20,000 bases of DNA from an uncultured virus (IMG/VR IMGVR_UViG_3300022868_000018) (IMGVR_UViG_3300022868_000018), one strand, 5' to 3'. Shown: positions 6,137 to 12,437, counted from the stretch's first letter. Made by a program: numbers and translations. The notes: generated by a model from the sequence alone, not told the origin.

Positions 6137-6862
6137 CTAAAGCCGTTCGTGTTTGTCGTACAAGTTGCGGAGATCTTCAGGGGCGATTCGGAATTTGGTA
6201 CCGTGGTTGCGAAGGGCCTTGCTGTTAGGCCGTGCCTCGCGCACATCGAAGTCTATAGCGATCCTACCGTCTGTCAGGGCCTCGGCGAATTCTGAAAGGT
6301 GAATGGTTTCATATAGGTCGGCCCGGTCAAAACGCACCCTCCGCTCACGCCTAACGCCTTGCACGACGACCAGACGACGGAGCTTGCCGCCAGCGATGTT
6401 CAGGAGTGTGTCATGCGACCAGATAGGCACAGGGCCATTACCATTGAGGGGCCGAACGATGATATTGCCTGCATCATCAAAGACCTTGAACCTGTCGGAT
6501 GTTCCCTTGATGGTATGCCGGAAGCTCAACCGCCCATTGTCGTCCAGCCAGCCATACTTACTGACCATGTAGCGCATGACGCGGGTACCGTCGTCACACT
6601 CCTTGTGGAACATGGTAATCAGGTGGGTCTGAGGAGAACACCACTTGACCTCCCAGCCGATGCAGTCGGGTATGTCCTTACCACCAGCCGTCAGGCCCAG
6701 CATGTCTTCAAGGAAATTGCCTGGACCTCCTGTGCCATTGTAGCGTGGCACACCGGGCGTCATGTCCAGCCAACCTATCTCAAGCAGGTTGCGAAGACGA
6801 GCCACCATCTCCCTCTTCGTCGTTGGTGGTTCAAGGGGCGGCACGAACGGTTGTGTGGTCAT
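6137..6862 (-). CDS. MvaI/BcnI-family restriction endonuclease
   Basis: GTGGPGNFLEDMLGL...IPDCIGWEVK (PD-(D/E)xK core) and C-terminal RNHGTKFRI; adjacent to a methyltransferase. Confidence 0.85.
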   Translation of the reverse strand: MTTQPFVPPLEPPTTKREMVARLRNLLEIGWLDMTPGVPRYNGTGGPGNFLEDMLGLTAGGKDIPDCIGWEVKWCSPQTHLITMFHKECDDGTRVMRYMVSKYGWLDDNGRLSFRHTIKGTSDRFKVFDDAGNIIVRPLNGNGPVPIWSHDTLLNIAGGKLRRLVVVQGVRRERRVRFDRADLYETIHLSEFAEALTDGRIAIDFDVREARPNSKALRNHGTKFRIAPEDLRNLYDKHERL

Positions 6863-7674
6863 TCCCTGAGCAGTCCCTTCGCAGCAAGTATGCGTTCCTT
6901 GGCAAGCTTGCCGTAGTCTGCCGAAACATCAATGCCTACCCACTCGCGGCCCAGGCTTTCAGCGGCTATCGCCGTAGAGCCGGAACCCATGAACGGGTCA
7001 AGCACGATCTGCGCGTTAGTTGCCTTGATACACCTTGCCGCCAGTTCCACAGGGAATGGGGCTGGATGGGGGTTGTTGCTCTCTTGGGGTATGTGCCATA
7101 CGTCACCGATTGCGTTTGCCTTCCGGGCCAACTTGAATTCAGGTTTGCAGATGATGTAAATGACTTCGTAAGTCGGCAGGAAGTATCCGGGATTGAAGTT
7201 TATGCCGCCATCGCGCTGCCAAATGATGATTTGACGGACAGGGAACCCATCAACGATGTCGTGGCGATCCTGCAAGAGACCTCCCTGGACGCGCCACTTA
7301 TGGTTGTAGAAGATAGCTCCGTCTTCGCGCAGCAAGCGTATCATTGCGGTTAGGCACTGGCGCTGCCAGGCCACATACTCCGCATGAGGCATGGTGTCGT
7401 CATGGTCGGTATAACCATTGATGAGGGCAGCATTCTTCCACTTTCCGCCGCGCCCGTCTTTCATGCCGTTGCCGGTGCTATTCTTCAGGTTGTACGGAGG
7501 GGACGTTACAATGAGATCAATAGAACCGGCAGGCATCCGGTCCATTAGTTCAACGGAATCGCCACAATGAACCTTGCCGATCCACTTCTCCATCAACCCG
7601 CGAGGAACGCGACTGACGGCGGCGGTGAGAAGATCATCCATGCCCATCGAAATGCGCGTGGCCCTCTCACTCAT
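6859..7674 (-). CDS. site-specific DNA methyltransferase, N4-C/N6-A beta class
   Basis: DLIVTSPPYN (motif IV) precedes HPAPFP and VLDPFMGSGST (motif I), the beta-class order. Confidence 0.95.
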   Translation of the reverse strand: MSERATRISMGMDDLLTAAVSRVPRGLMEKWIGKVHCGDSVELMDRMPAGSIDLIVTSPPYNLKNSTGNGMKDGRGGKWKNAALINGYTDHDDTMPHAEYVAWQRQCLTAMIRLLREDGAIFYNHKWRVQGGLLQDRHDIVDGFPVRQIIIWQRDGGINFNPGYFLPTYEVIYIICKPEFKLARKANAIGDVWHIPQESNNPHPAPFPVELAARCIKATNAQIVLDPFMGSGSTAIAAESLGREWVGIDVSADYGKLAKERILAAKGLLRE

Positions 7675-8582
7675 GCAATCAGCCCCTTATATGTCAGGCG
7701 AAGCCCTGAGGTGTTTTCGAGGAGAGTGTCAACCCGTTCGGTGCCGTCAAGGTCGTTCATGTTCCACCGTGCCTCAAACTCCGCGATGTAACGGTGAATA
7801 TGCTTGGCGGTCATCTTGTGAAAGATACCATAGTGGCCACGCTTTAGCAAGGCCCAAAATGACTCAATGCCGTTCGTGTGGCAATCGCCGTTCACATACT
7901 CGCCGGCTGAGTGGTTGACGCTTTGATGATTGTACCCGTCCAGACCGAGGTAGCTGCTATGATCATCACTATACAGCGTGGAGTTCAGACTCACGTTCTC
8001 CCTGATAAACCTGTGGACCTCTTCTCGATTGGTCCTCCCAATCATCTCTGCGGCAACACGGCCATCACGCTCACGCGCGCCCATGACGGTCAACTTGCCG
8101 ACCGGACCCCGACCAGCATTCAGTTTCTTGCTGGCATGCTTGTTACCTTCCTTGCCGCCGATATAAGTCTCGTCAGCCTCTACTGTGCCGTCCATCGGGC
8201 CGCCGAGATCGCCTACGGCACCGGCTACTTCGCGAAGCCTGCCGAGCATGAACCAGGCCGTCTTCTGAGTGACGCCGATTTCGCGGGCGAGTTGCGTGGA
8301 TGCGATACCCTTGCGGTTCATGGTGATAAGCCAAACCGCAGCGAACCATTTCCGCAAGGGCAGGCGGCTCTCCTCAAAGATCGTGCCCTTGCGGACGCTG
8401 AACTGCTTATTACAGTCGGCACACTTGTAGACATGTCGGCGCTCAATCCGATAGAACTTTCGGGCACTACCGCAGAGGGGACAGATAATGCCCTTCGGCC
8501 AGCGCAGTTTCTCCAGGTGCAAGATGCAAGTCTTTTCGTTGGGAAAGGCTTCCATCAGGGAGAATAGGCTATCGTATCTCAT
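7671..8582 (-). CDS. IS1595-family DDE transposase, 303 aa
   Basis: Start refined to MRYDSL with SD AAAGGGG. LRWPKG..CPLCG..YKCADC Zn ribbon; VEADETYIGG, LYSDD, VNHS..YV, HTNGIESFWALLKRG..G, YIAEFEARWN. Confidence 0.95.
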   Translation of the reverse strand: MRYDSLFSLMEAFPNEKTCILHLEKLRWPKGIICPLCGSARKFYRIERRHVYKCADCNKQFSVRKGTIFEESRLPLRKWFAAVWLITMNRKGIASTQLAREIGVTQKTAWFMLGRLREVAGAVGDLGGPMDGTVEADETYIGGKEGNKHASKKLNAGRGPVGKLTVMGARERDGRVAAEMIGRTNREEVHRFIRENVSLNSTLYSDDHSSYLGLDGYNHQSVNHSAGEYVNGDCHTNGIESFWALLKRGHYGIFHKMTAKHIHRYIAEFEARWNMNDLDGTERVDTLLENTSGLRLTYKGLIA

Positions 8583-8886
8583 GGTTGCGGCCCCTTTCGT
8601 ATCGTACGCAACCATTGTAGCATGTTCCACTGGTTGTGTCAAGTATATATTTCCCTTCCATTTCCGCTGCTTCCGCTGCTTCCGCTGCTCTCGCCACACA
8701 TTCCGGGCAGAAATCGTCCACGTCGGCGTGACAACTTTCCACCCAGAGTTCCGACCGCCAACCATGCTGCTCCAGCCACGCATCAATCGCATCGTTGTCC
8801 CGGACGGTCTCCGGCATCTCCACTTCCCGCCCGCACTCGTCGCAGGTGACGCGCAAGGCACCGTCATGCGTCGGGGTTACGGTCAT
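8569..8886 (-). CDS. Zn-finger protein whose 3' end is replaced by IS sequence
   Basis: SD GAGGAGG; MTVTPTHDGALRVTCDECG...DFCPEC. The reconstructed empty site gives the native end EMEGDDTDA*. Confidence 0.75.
   Translation of the reverse strand: MTVTPTHDGALRVTCDECGREVEMPETVRDNDAIDAWLEQHGWRSELWVESCHADVDDFCPECVARAAEAAEAAEMEGKYILDTTSGTCYNGCVRYERGRNHEIR
8614..8642 (-). promoter_or_regulatory. sigma70-type promoter for the transposase-MTase-REase genes
   Basis: TTGACA (8642-8637, inside the IR), 17-bp spacer, TACAAT (8619-8614) with extended TG. Confidence 0.8.
8656..8663. repeat. 8-bp target site duplication TTCCATTT (right copy)
   Basis: Identical to 6106-6113; abuts the IR. Confidence 0.92.
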
Positions 8887-9730
8887 CGGGGCTGCCCTCC
8901 TCGCAATCCTGCCGGTGGTCGGCCTCCGCGATGCTGTCGGGGTCGCCAACATCATCTTTCGCCCGCCGCTGGCTCTGTTCAACAACCGTGTACCATTTAT
9001 TGATCTCTCGCAACCGACCCATCGACCACTCCACACTGCCGGCACTGCCGCCGCCAACAGCCTCCTGCACATCGCCTGCGCTCAGGTTTGTGGCGATGCA
9101 CAGGGACTTCATTTCGCGATACCGATAATCCATCAGCGCGAGGAAGCCGGTCAGCCCATACTCCGCGTTGTACTGCCTGCCCAAGTCATCCAGCAGCAGC
9201 AGATCGCAGCCGCGATAGGCATTGTCGGCGGCATCCCGGTCGCGGTACAGCTTATCAAACAGGTCAGCGCAGGTAACGTACTGCACCACCGCGCCAGTAT
9301 CTTGGGCCGCCAGCGCAACGAGCGCCAGACAGGAGGTTTTGCCGTTGCCAGGCTGTCCGCTCAGAATCAGCCCCTCGCCATTCTCCAGCTTCGCGGGCAC
9401 GGTCGCGCAGTAGTCCCGCAGTTTACCCGCCACACTCGTTGGCACCCGCTCCCACACCGCGCCAAAATGGCGCTTGCCAAAACCCATAGCCCGCAACCGT
9501 GATCCCTGTCGTCGCGACGCCCGCTCGGCCGCCCACGGACATTTGCCAACTGCGTCTATTGGGCAGGGGTCATATATGCCGACAGAGTTCATGCGCGTCA
9601 ATCCACGCGGCTCTCCCATTGCGTCGAAATAGCCCATGCAATCCGCGCGGTCCTCCGGGCACATCTGGTCATAGTTCGGATTCGCCATTATGCTCTCGGC
9701 CATGAATGCCACCTCGTCATCTCCAGCCAT
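8864..9730 (-). CDS. DnaC/IstB-like AAA+ ATPase (helicase loader)
   Basis: Walker A GQPGNGKT, Walker B LLLLDDLG, RY...IATNL; directly downstream of the initiator (TAATG overlap). Confidence 0.9.
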   Translation of the reverse strand: MAGDDEVAFMAESIMANPNYDQMCPEDRADCMGYFDAMGEPRGLTRMNSVGIYDPCPIDAVGKCPWAAERASRRQGSRLRAMGFGKRHFGAVWERVPTSVAGKLRDYCATVPAKLENGEGLILSGQPGNGKTSCLALVALAAQDTGAVVQYVTCADLFDKLYRDRDAADNAYRGCDLLLLDDLGRQYNAEYGLTGFLALMDYRYREMKSLCIATNLSAGDVQEAVGGGSAGSVEWSMGRLREINKWYTVVEQSQRRAKDDVGDPDSIAEADHRQDCEEGSPDDRNPDA

Positions 9731-10767
9731 TAGAACACCTCACTCCCATCGTCTCTGTACACCGGCACGAAGCTCTCACTCACACGGATCGGCCCTGTTT
9801 GGGGCGACGCCTGCGATCCGGCGCAGGACTTCGGCTGCCAACTCGACGAGGCATTTCTGACATAGTTTAGATTTGGGACACCCGCTTTGTTCGCCGCGTT
9901 CATGCCGTATCGCCACGGCTCTACTCCCACACCAACCGTCTGCCCGTTGCCATCCCGGATTTCAAGTAACTCGCGTGTACGATTCAACCGACCCGGAAGC
10001 GTCATTTTTCCAGACTCATTCTTCCCTGCCAGAAGCTCTATGTATTCATCAACCAGCCCGAGGTCCTCATCTGACAACGGTTCCCGGAGAGCGTCAAGCT
10101 GCTGCTCGATTGTGGCCCTGTCTGGTTTTGGCGGTTTGGCTGGCTCTGGCTTTTCAGGTTCTACTTCATCCAATGGCAACTGAGTGGCTGCGTCCGGTGC
10201 CGGCGAAGCCGGTTCGGACAAGGAGTCGTTTCTAGTCTGGTCTGAGTCTGGGTCTACGTCTGGGTCTACGTCTAGCACGTTTTCGCCGGAGTCCTCCGAG
10301 AGTAGTCCGGGAGTAGTCCGGGACTTCGGCTCTAAGCCGTCTGTGAGCCCGTAGAAGGCCGCTTGGCGGGGACAGTCCTCTTCTTCCATATATTGGCGCA
10401 ACTCCTGCGGCACTCGCCAGCAGGGCGGTAGATTATTGCCGGGTTCACCCACTCTGCCCCACTTGATGCTCTGGTGTTTGTGGAAGTTTATGATGTAAAG
10501 TAGTTGCTTCCCGTTGTCGCTATATGGGTAGAGTAAGCCCGCATTGACTTGAGCAACTATACACTTCTGGACGTCGCTTTTCGTGATGTCCATGCCAGGA
10601 CAAACGCGGGCGCGATACTCCGTAGACGATCCCGGAATGATTGCGTACACGTCTGCCTTTGGCAAGCTCCAAGTGAAGAGAAGCGCGGCCATTGTGTTGC
10701 GTTCGGCGAGACCGCAAAGCTTCTCATCAGCGCCGATCTCCTCAGTTATCTTTGCCCACCTTAGCAT
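9730..10767 (-). CDS. putative phage replication initiator
   Basis: Upstream of DnaC-like gene; wHTH-like N-terminus ending LYIINFHKHQ; low-complexity linker with DNA repeats; C-terminal NLNYVRNASSSW resembling the DnaD-type Y...W motif. Confidence 0.7.
   Translation of the reverse strand: MLRWAKITEEIGADEKLCGLAERNTMAALLFTWSLPKADVYAIIPGSSTEYRARVCPGMDITKSDVQKCIVAQVNAGLLYPYSDNGKQLLYIINFHKHQSIKWGRVGEPGNNLPPCWRVPQELRQYMEEEDCPRQAAFYGLTDGLEPKSRTTPGLLSEDSGENVLDVDPDVDPDSDQTRNDSLSEPASPAPDAATQLPLDEVEPEKPEPAKPPKPDRATIEQQLDALREPLSDEDLGLVDEYIELLAGKNESGKMTLPGRLNRTRELLEIRDGNGQTVGVGVEPWRYGMNAANKAGVPNLNYVRNASSSWQPKSCAGSQASPQTGPIRVSESFVPVYRDDGSEVF
10236..10323. repeat. short direct repeats within the initiator gene (candidate origin iterons)
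   Basis: GTCTGGGTCTAC twice plus partial copies, and GAGTAGTCCGG twice. Confidence 0.5.
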
Positions 10768-10901
10768 GCTTCACCTACTCGCAGACAAAAGAGAAGGCCA
10801 CCTGCAAAACGATACCAATGCCCGGCGAGGGGAAAAGGAGCGTTTCTGTTGCAGGTGGCCTTTATCGGTTGTGGTGAGCGTTGTGGTGAGCGTTGTGGCA
10901 T
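10761..10901 (-). CDS. 46-aa leader uORF overlapping the initiator start (not in ORF track)
   Basis: SD AAGGAG 8 nt before ATG; MPQRSPQRSPQPIKATC...VGEAC*; its TAA lies just inside the rep start (ATGCTAA). Confidence 0.55.
   Translation of the reverse strand: MPQRSPQRSPQPIKATCNRNAPFPLAGHWYRFAGGLLFCLRVGEAC
10794..10862. terminator. large-loop hairpin, candidate attenuator upstream of rep
   Basis: Perfect 14-bp IR AAGGCCACCTGCAA / TTGCAGGTGGCCTT; followed by CTCTTTT on the minus strand. Confidence 0.65.
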
Positions 10902-10936
10902 GAAAAAAACTCCTTTACTCTCTCGCCGGTACCACC

Positions 10937-10965
10937 ATCATACAGCATCCGAACTGCCAAGTCAA
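10937..10965 (-). promoter_or_regulatory. sigma70-type promoter for the replication module
   Basis: TTGACT (10965-10960), 17-bp spacer, TATGAT (10942-10937). Confidence 0.75.
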
Positions 10966-11165
10966 GCATCTTTCCGCACGATCCGGTTCCCGTCTGGCCC
11001 GTACACCAGCACGTCGGCATACCCGCAGCGCGTCCTGGGGCAGCGGCGGTTCTGCACGATGCGCCCGCGCTCAGGAGGTATGGTGGAGGATAGAATGAGT
11101 AGCTGATGCCCGCAGGCGGGGCAGCGTTGCAGCGGTGGTGCGACTGTGGCTGTAGCTGTGGTCAT
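10962..11165 (-). CDS. small Zn-ribbon protein (Ogr/Delta- or NrdR-N-like)
   Basis: CPACG..LILSS....RIVQNRRCPRTRCGY; SD AGAGGAG. Confidence 0.65.
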   Translation of the reverse strand: MTTATATVAPPLQRCPACGHQLLILSSTIPPERGRIVQNRRCPRTRCGYADVLVYGPDGNRIVRKDA

Positions 11166-11403: not shown

Positions 11404-11470
11404 CCGTCACACCTCCGTTTTGGTTGTTGTTGGTGCTCGATGGTCGTCTGCGCCGGCTGCCAGTAGGGGG

Positions 11471-11755
11471 TCATTCCGCGTCACCCTCGCCACTCTGCCC
11501 AATGCCGTTCTCATCTGCATCACTGTCCAGCAACTGCCTCACGAATTGCAGCAGTTTTGTCTGGTCAGCCGGGGTCAACCGCATCACTTCATTCTCACCC
11601 GAACAAAACACGATGTCAGCGCCAGGTGTGAAAGACATCCACGCATCGCCCACCAATTGGATATCCAGCTTTTCGGTCAGCGGGTCTGATTTGATGCCAA
11701 GACCATTGCGGCAAAAGTACTTGTCATGGGGGGTTTGCCCCTCGCCATTATCCAT
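11471..11755 (-). CDS. hypothetical protein
   Basis: SD AAGGAG; ends GEGDAE*. Confidence 0.7.
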   Translation of the reverse strand: MDNGEGQTPHDKYFCRNGLGIKSDPLTEKLDIQLVGDAWMSFTPGADIVFCSGENEVMRLTPADQTKLLQFVRQLLDSDADENGIGQSGEGDAE

Positions 11756-11831
11756 TACAATTATCTCCTTCGTTCGGGATCAACACTGCTGTCGCCTTCG
11801 GTTATCTACCAGTGCGGCTGGCTGGCGCCGT

Positions 11832-12437
11832 TCACTCCGCGTCACCCTCGCCACACGCGCCCGGCTCCCCGTCGGCTGTCTCAATCGGCAGGCCGTCCAC
11901 GCGCTTGCGCTCTGCGTCATCCTTCCGCACCTCGCGCTCTGCAATGTAGAGTAGGTGCTGATGGCCTGTGCGCCGGCGTTGTGCTTCTGCCCTCTCGCTA
12001 AGTGTGAGCGGCAAGCTATCTGCAGTTGCTACGCCCGGCTCCCCGTCGCCGTCCAGGTGCGAGTAGGTGTCCGGCAAGATGCCCTGCTCGATCCGCGTCT
12101 GGCGGTCAATTTCGAGGGCTTCACTGTAGGACATTTCATCCACGGAGAATACGCCGTGATTCATCACGATAATCCCATAGCCGAAAGGCCTGCCTTGCCC
12201 GGGGTCGTAGCGTGTCCCCACCATCCTCCCAACCATACCGAGACGTGGGTCGGGCTTCTCGCCGTACTCCTGTACCTGGGCATCCGGCGCGTCGTCGATG
12301 TGCTCCTGGATGACCTCGACGCACTTGCGGGTACCCAGAAACACCCCGCTTGCCCCATTCGACAACGCCTTCGCCTCGACAGCCTTCTCGCGGGTACTCT
12401 CCAGCATCGCATTCAGTCTCTCCATCAGTCCGTCCAT
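11832..12437 (-). CDS. hypothetical protein
   Basis: SD GAGGGG; ends GEGDAE*. Confidence 0.75.
   Translation of the reverse strand: MDGLMERLNAMLESTREKAVEAKALSNGASGVFLGTRKCVEVIQEHIDDAPDAQVQEYGEKPDPRLGMVGRMVGTRYDPGQGRPFGYGIIVMNHGVFSVDEMSYSEALEIDRQTRIEQGILPDTYSHLDGDGEPGVATADSLPLTLSERAEAQRRRTGHQHLLYIAEREVRKDDAERKRVDGLPIETADGEPGACGEGDAE

Follow-up and report, generated by a model that had tools for sequence, protein, structure and literature searches.

Among the closest described systems, RNA-OUT of IS10 is transcribed from the opposite strand, and the IncI arrangement places the partner of the loop downstream. In P4, the CI RNA is processed from the same transcript and, as described in PMC4825925 and PMC10111431, causes premature termination at seqA and seqC before the replication genes. 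For guanidine-IV, PMC7736828 describes a 5′ element that pairs into the loop of a terminator hairpin, with antitermination as the proposed outcome. YUNR loops are stated to be common in antisense systems (PMC4737173). Here we describe a short leader of an uncultured phage that bears on these systems. It is a real RNA module that is conserved and so far uncatalogued. We regard it as a variant of leader control on the same strand, infer its function from its sequence, and consider it likely to be an RNA switch that limits the expression of the genes behind it.

The window, the whole stretch of 20,000 nucleotides that was analysed, corresponds to positions 48945-68944 of a 68,944-base virus record that bears 127-nt terminal repeats, and all 24 runs listed for this record are salt-lake metagenomes, with no RNA run among them. 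The replication module of the phage lies on the minus strand of the window, with the following features around the leader:

Minus strand, replication module in order: Cro-like HTH gene, RusA, Gam-like, RecT-like, several small ORFs, then initiator and loader.
10962..11165, minus strand: upstream Cys-rich ORF of 67 codons, on the same strand as the leader.
9730..10767, minus strand: rep, replication initiation protein of 345 aa (phrog_1408, E 2.6e-8).
8864..9730, minus strand: DnaC/IstB-like helicase loader of 288 aa (PF01695, E 1.6e-8; phrog_50, E 5e-23).

The N-terminus of rep shares 34% identity with a "DnaD domain protein" of Paenibacillus phages, and a Pfam search of rep gave no match. A terminator scan listed no site between the 67-codon ORF and the leader, and transcription from further upstream may therefore extend across the module as well. 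The phage encodes a short tyrosine recombinase and a ParB N-domain protein, which hint at a temperate or plasmid-like life. Against the INPHARED phages, the DNA search returned a single chance match (E 4), the amidase had no match and rep had only distant DnaD-domain matches; among GTDB genomes, a relative of rep was found in 0 of 47 candidates and the leader module in 0 of 42 pattern matches. Two further observations concern the cassettes nearby. Behind the loader operon lies an inserted IS1595-family transposase with its own strong promoter (11/12); next come an N6/N4 methylase and an endonuclease of the MvaI/BcnI family, which make up a complete-looking restriction-modification pair (window 7671-8642 and 6137-7674, minus strand). 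Moreover, two adjoining small genes share a 20-nt 3′ end coding GEGDAE-stop (window 11454-11493 and 11815-11854), and a gene end at a related locus, L042, is similar; this shared end is possibly a recombination linker between cassettes.

The leader itself precedes rep and is organized as follows:

10937..10965, minus strand: sigma70-type promoter TTGACT-17-TATGAT (TTGACT at 10965-10960, TATGAT at 10942-10937; 10/12 in the promoter scan).
10930, minus strand: predicted transcription start (+1), placed 6 nt after the -10 box.
10910..10929, minus strand: segment A, the 5′ strand of the long-range helix, from coordinates and duplex energies.
10914-10910, minus strand: Shine-Dalgarno motif (SD) AGGAG of the uORF, in the 3′ half of A.
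10903..10909, minus strand: U-run separating the SD from the uORF start; folding predicts that it pairs with A in a weak local hairpin (about -9 kcal/mol).
10761..10901, minus strand: uORF of 46 codons that runs through the hairpin and whose stop overlaps the rep start.
10868..10897, minus strand: C/A-rich spacer with a 12-nt tandem duplication in its sequence that keeps the frame.
10849..10862, minus strand: 5′ arm of the 14-bp basal stem P1, a perfect inverted repeat.
10822..10840, minus strand: segment B, complement of A.
10829-10824, minus strand: predicted apical loop, complement of +4..+9, holding a YUNR motif.
10808..10821, minus strand: linker L3, predicted alternative partner of B in the upper hairpin.
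10794..10807, minus strand: 3′ arm of P1.
10785..10795, minus strand: interrupted U-rich tail, candidate termination site.
10772..10776, minus strand: SD-like AGGTG of rep itself, from the sequence.

An earlier note on this DNA had picked out the promoter with its 17-nt spacer, two near-complementary segments corresponding to A and B, a perfect 14-bp hairpin and a 46-codon uORF that crosses it and stops over the rep start. The observed feature is real, and all coordinates check out. The upstream 67-codon ORF extends into the promoter, its stop codon overlapping the -35 box, and the uORF stop occupies +4..+6 of the rep ORF. The duplex of A with the loop has a predicted energy of -26.7 kcal/mol, equalled by 4 of 3000 shuffles of A; with A extended by one base it reaches -28.8 kcal/mol, equalled by 0 of 1000. 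Among perfect inverted repeats of the 68.9-kb genome with loops of at most about 120 nt, the 14-bp stem (10862-10849 / 10807-10794) is the longest. The hairpin is missing from the terminator scan because that scan accepts loops of 3-8 nt only. Two details of the earlier description need qualifying: B does lie within the hairpin loop, but folding predicts that some of this 41-nt "loop" is itself paired and that only a 6-nt tip stays open; and the U-rich tail is present but interrupted, with 6 T in the 8 nt past the last G/C. The uORF peptide has no Pfam or PHROG match, and its sequence is not conserved. DNA reads from four runs make variant leaders visible only in part; record 4 of run X11 (window 10787-10945) holds a leader variant that lacks the 12-nt duplication and has a different downstream gene start.

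Across this phage clade, ten distinct copies of the module were found, nine of them complete, with six at replication loci and four at other promoters. A search with the initiator gave relatives at L001/L002 (72%), L041 (identical), L042 (90%), L043 (44%), L044 (25%, best segment) and L056 (43%), along with 13 weak matches. The same leader with different letters stands at L001, L042, L043 and L044, the last without A because its contig starts inside the leader. L056 has no module, either at the locus or in the rest of its 58%-complete record, and the weak rep-like loci L003-L005 and L045-L054 gave no covariance-model match. A letter-free promoter pattern was true at three of eight loci, one of them new (L060), where the leader precedes a 50-aa hydrophobic ORF and a putative initiator without family match. 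The uORF-coupled gene of that locus (L060:1730-1882, minus strand) is the hydrophobic ORF, which is Cys-rich and likewise without family match; in P4 and P1, kil and icd occupy the matching position. A covariance model of six hairpins then found two further copies in the L060 record, and scanning five complete records for a promoter combined with a hairpin added two more, one in G001/G004 and the other in the genome studied here. In IMG/VR, the true matches of letter-specific patterns were confined to the L001/L002 leader (2/14, 2/18 and 0/1 loci), the rest being chance, while a spacer pattern was true in 3 of 36 matches, none of them new. The copies away from replication loci are:

20396-20264 of this genome, minus strand: second copy in this genome (L160), with its own promoter and different A/B letters, preceding a 1471-aa tail-region gene.
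G001:36857 / G004:26440, G003:20142 and G003:24354, minus strand: further copies.

These four copies precede a TnpB-family gene (TnpB/IS605 OrfB family), an HNH gene followed by a zinc-ribbon protein, an unknown ORF and the tail-region gene. The module is not specific to replication, and the replication switch proposed in the earlier note is thus too narrow, given these four non-replication promoters. An SD-like motif in A is absent from three of the four, so that SD sequestration, proposed in the same place, fails as its general job. Their upstream frames also differ, and include two GTG frames, of which one ends on the following start and the other is fused to the following gene, as well as short frames and an ATG frame of 13 codons with its stop in the loop. 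Not all of these copies have a coupled uORF; the tail-region copy of this genome has neither an SD in A nor a uORF through the hairpin.

A nuclease gene stands directly behind the module in 4 of the 10 copies, including L001 and L043, where an HNH gene lies between leader and initiator, and insertions may thus occur preferentially just behind the leader. The C-terminal part of the window rep recurs with two other N-terminal domains (P0004, P0005), and by eye the C-terminal part of the L060 initiator resembles that of L001. The initiators (P0001-P0006 and that of L060) are thus modular, with the leader staying at the locus while initiator domains swap. A promoter and a long hairpin with a clean U-tract also stand ahead of an ORF at 32632 in G000 (genome 32808-32637, minus strand). 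The hairpin (32637-32719) was rejected as a third copy, having a weak model match and no A:B match; it looks like a plain terminator hairpin.

All nine complete copies share one geometry: a promoter of the form TT(G/T)AC-17/18-TAnnnT, a P1 of 11-14 bp, a loop of 37-43 nt and a B that ends 12-16 nt before the 3′ arm. The -35 and -10 boxes are kept across the five aligned replication copies. A:B pairing begins at the predicted +1 or +2 in 9/9. A joint MAFFT alignment of A and B put A out of place, so a script was used to count the A:B pairs by structural register. Over +2..+8, with the register taken from the predicted duplex itself, cognate cells are paired in 63 of 63 cases with several pair types per position; non-cognate cells are paired in 329 of 504 and fully paired in 4 of 72 combinations. 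The predicted +1 is supported by positions -3..-1, which pair in just 8 of 27 cells. Shuffles of A equalled the observed energy in 0/1000 for eight copies and 1/1000 for one. In P1, both sides have changed in 9 of the 13 pairs, and 93.6% of cells are paired, compared with 34-51% in slid controls; over ten hairpins only 5 columns are invariant. The two alternative folds of the earlier note, A:B and the long hairpin, are therefore conserved, and the covariation check that it had called for in homologous leaders shows both A:B and P1 kept by compensatory changes. The structure is well supported by covariation, and from it we infer the function.

On this evidence, a plain terminator or chance complementarity in GC-rich DNA is extremely improbable. 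The loose descriptor that drops the promoter requirement is passed by 4 of about 22 long hairpins in G000, two of which have no promoter in view and so lend this explanation what support it has; compensatory changes over nine copies, with the pairing fixed to +1/+2, already contradict it. In addition, model R2, built from the full set of ten hairpins, has matches in 4 of 47 virus records, and these four belong to this clade.

In 9/9 copies the complement of +5..+8 lies open at the predicted tip of the hairpin, and a YUNR motif lies in the predicted tip in 7/10, namely all six replication copies and one of the four others. The upper stem, formed by B and L3, reaches a Fisher combined p of about 0.001 over nine copies, a value that is optimistic because the copies are related. 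Individually, it clearly beats L3 shuffles in 2/9 copies (1 and 5 of 400 shuffles, compared with 22-209 of 400 in the remaining copies); the window copy does no better than its shuffles (146/400), and none of the first five copies fell below 24/500. Folding predictions make A:B the most stable structure at the point when B exits from the polymerase in 9/9 copies, and at the terminated length they make the hairpin 2-12 kcal/mol more stable than A:B. B is predicted to be unable to pair with A and L3 at once. A and the basal stem do not overlap in sequence, so any exclusion between the two folds must come from the two partners of B and from topology.

The same lack of overlap would allow a static pseudoknot, in which A:B and P1 coexist and protect the 5′ end or define a stable small RNA, with no switch at all. 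The order A, P1 5′ arm, B, P1 3′ arm is that of an H-type fold, the 12-16-nt L3 could span the A:B helix, and the three copies without an SD in A and the five with poor U-tracts would suit such a structure. We consider it unlikely: B has a second predicted partner in L3, with the combined p about 0.001 given above, two stems of more than one helical turn each would probably need strand threading, and the uORF SD would be masked permanently, yet the uORF is open and coupled.

Coupling was claimed in the earlier note for this leader and holds for most replication copies. Their uORFs have 36 to 61 codons and varying peptide sequences, start 18-39 nt before the hairpin and cross it. In 5/6 replication copies, which between them precede four different genes, the uORF stop falls within -4..+4 nt of the next ATG; of 12 readings in other frames none does so, the nearest being at -6. 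The exception is L001, where the stop lies at +80 and the uORF is not coupled; at L044 the uORF start is off the contig and the frame was set by homology. Every downstream gene except that of L043 has a clear SD-like motif; rep has a coupled uORF plus an SD-like motif of its own.

This layout recalls Gifsy-1, where the short terminated IsrK, as described in PMC4825925, binds to the long isoform and thereby turns on orf45 together with anrP, which is coupled to it. The arrangement of promoter, short RNA, uORF and coupled gene is similar here, and the A of a short RNA could bind the B of read-through transcripts, free the uORF SD and turn rep on. Such activation in trans is decidedly unlikely. 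In the account of PMC4825925, the IsrK terminator precedes the uORF and the short RNA holds one partner, whereas here the short RNA would contain A as well as B; in three copies there is no SD that could be freed, and positive feedback on an initiator would be harder to justify.

The reading that we prefer, tentatively and as something still short of probable, is that the leader module is a self-attenuator whose released hairpin RNA shuts down new transcripts. Closing a stem of more than one turn would be slow within a loop that a helix of 17-22 pairs has already shut, while the polymerase still holds the 3′ end. If A captures B first, the hairpin would not close in time and transcription would read through into rep and the loader. 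Given the two partners of B and this slow closing, A:B may be taken to represent read-through, and the hairpin to represent the stop. A ribosome translating the uORF would likewise keep the hairpin from closing and pass on to rep, which has its own SD; coupled ribosomes prevent the formation of intrinsic terminators according to PMC5021804, so that the uORF ribosome would offer a second read-through route. If A is unavailable, the hairpin would close, transcription would stop at the U-rich tail and an RNA of about 105-145 nt would be released. The tip of this RNA, the complement of +5..+8, would bind the 5′ ends of new transcripts, as its geometry, similar to that of IS10 RNA-OUT, suggests. 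Binding in trans would block the cis A:B helix and the uORF SD and would lead to more termination. Initiator would thus be made in an early burst, after which negative feedback without any protein would set in. Because their A/B letters differ, most modules within a genome would act separately.

Several observations count against the attenuator. A GC-rich stem is present as in intrinsic terminators, and the U-tracts are weak: 4/9 copies have 6-7 T in 8 nt and 5/9 only 4 T. The A of a released RNA could occupy its own B, since the short RNA carries both, and the match of the tip to +5..+8 arises partly from spacing alone, the apex lying near the middle of a 40-nt loop. YUNR is absent from three of the four non-replication copies. 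Specificity is incomplete as well. Cross-pairing is weak inside G000 (-6.8/-8.6 versus cognate -28.8/-27.4 kcal/mol) and inside G001 (-14 versus cognate -31/-35); the two extra copies of G003 cross-pair strongly, with the A of G003b pairing the loop of G003c at -29.5 (cognate -34.6). Between the replication leaders of G000, G001 and G003, cross-pairing reaches -22 to -30 kcal/mol, so that these would not be clean immunity groups. The idea that the B tip silences other genes was rejected: the complement of its seed occurs 7 times on the coding strand versus 3.4 expected, but 8 times in G001, for which this seed is not the cognate one.

Much of this would also fit a kinetic switch that works in cis only, which comes close behind the self-attenuator in probability. 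The two folds would compete in each transcript, with polymerase speed, pausing and, in replication copies, uORF ribosome loading deciding between them; once the hairpin has formed, the 5′ end of the same transcript, being free, may pair into the tip and cover the SD, leaving a short translation window with no RNA acting in trans. All covariation data fit this scheme equally well, as does A:B being most stable at B exit in 9/9 copies with the folds within 2-12 kcal/mol; a partner in cis has a concentration advantage, and the incomplete orthogonality needs no explaining. It leaves unexplained the anti-5′-end sequence of the tip in 9/9 copies and the U-turn motif in the six replication copies, and, without an added factor, it senses neither copy number nor time.

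A different source for the RNA acting in trans was suggested in the earlier note, namely IncI-type control by an antisense RNA from the plus strand across 10794-10862. The hairpin would fold on either strand, as weak model matches on the opposite strand indicate, and the G003 replication leader has a 9/12 promoter-like site on that strand. We consider this control very unlikely. A scan for sigma70-consensus promoters found no conserved antisense promoter, the best sites scoring only 6-9/12 at scattered positions with predicted starts 13-165 nt past the hairpin, and no antisense U-tract is conserved in nine copies. The G-U pairs favour the sense strand (90 versus 22 bits, with a model built from that strand). 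The opposite-strand antisense RNA is the defining part of IncI control, and in this part the likeness drawn in the earlier note is not supported.

Rfam models gave no known family for the leader, in answer to the search that the earlier note had proposed. At gathering score, the window and 12 loci had no match except one tRNA; at E up to 10 only snoRNA and IRES noise appeared, and the C4, c4-2 and isrK models did not match. The core of a ligand riboswitch was also sought, and no conserved unpaired nucleotides were found; the pairing is kept while the letters are free. No description of the module was found in the literature, where the supplements of PMC10690425 (files 1, 2, 4), PMC5737381 and PMC2864571 may hold the motif; a search of 6 supplementary files of PMC10690425 for five short motifs gave no match. 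An unrelated leader came up among Oscillospiraceae/Clostridia (L102, L110, L114, L116, L120, L121, L128, L134, L139, L142): a conserved, folded 5′ leader that precedes genes resembling, by eye, secE, nusG and rplK, and whose first bases pair about 80-95 nt downstream. It has no Rfam match in L102, L114 and L120 and is separate from the phage module.

If the self-attenuator is right, a single hairpin of ~65 nt and the 5′ end of the transcript itself would provide negative feedback on replication without a repressor protein or an antisense gene, and the module would be a stripped-down form of P4 RNA immunity that is reused two or three times per genome. A broader reading, possible and rather doubtful, is that this phage clade times its genes with a reusable protein-free feedback unit: an aborted leader would repress the next transcripts of the same promoter, recognised through their first ten bases, and several units with different letters would serve replication, recombination-region, TnpB and tail genes. 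The nine natural A/B pairs make the question of cis versus trans action testable with sigma70 polymerase, and under the self-attenuator the modules would offer compact, largely orthogonal RNA regulators.

Altogether, the leader can be compared with five described systems. With guanidine-IV, as described in PMC7736828, it shares a 5′ element, here A, that pairs into the loop of a hairpin, here a candidate terminator. Unlike guanidine-IV, it has no conserved ligand-binding nucleotides, and the letters of A and B vary freely. Replication control of the I-complex plasmids (repB leader peptide, RNAI and ColIb-P9 pseudoknot; PMC10286972) is similar, as described there, in having a leader ORF before the initiator and a long-range loop pairing. 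Here, by contrast, no separate antisense gene was found, the module is not limited to rep, and the partner of the loop lies upstream, at +1. IS10 RNA-OUT/RNA-IN, in the description of PMC4737173, resembles it in a hairpin of ~60-70 nt whose loop pairs from the 5′ end of the message over the ribosome-binding site; RNA-OUT is fully complementary, whereas here the hairpin sits in the same leader and the match is imperfect.

The likeness to IsrK/orf45/anrP goes further. According to PMC4825925, the two have in common a promoter, a leaky terminator (here a candidate), short and long isoforms (here predicted), two folds, and a uORF of about 45 codons with a variable peptide that is coupled to the next gene. 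The same account places the IsrK uORF start past the terminator, whereas the uORF here starts before the hairpin and runs through it; it has the short RNA activate, whereas the short RNA here would carry both partners; and the target here is an initiator, not an antirepressor.

P4 CI is the closest in working, a likeness that the earlier note had drawn together with P1 C4 and that is supported here. As P4 is described (PMC4825925, PMC10111431), both place an antisense-like element and its upstream target on one strand within one leader, and both have a promoter inside a run of same-strand genes; in P4 control falls on the replication genes and translation through the region is tied to termination, as would be the case here. 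An upstream target on the same transcript, like seqA, is present as A:B in 9/9 complete copies. A downstream target like seqC was sought by pairing the loop with the next 60 nt and was equalled by 96-473 of 500 shuffles (Fisher p 0.92, 9/9 copies), so that a second downstream target as in P4 was rejected. The module differs further from P4 in having a single hairpin with a candidate intrinsic U-tail, a target fixed at the 5′ end of the transcript, and two or three copies per genome with different letters. It is a member of neither the P4 CI nor the IsrK family, since it has no Rfam match and no downstream target and its uORF starts before the hairpin; it works most like P4 CI and seqA, within the isoform and coupled-uORF layout of IsrK.
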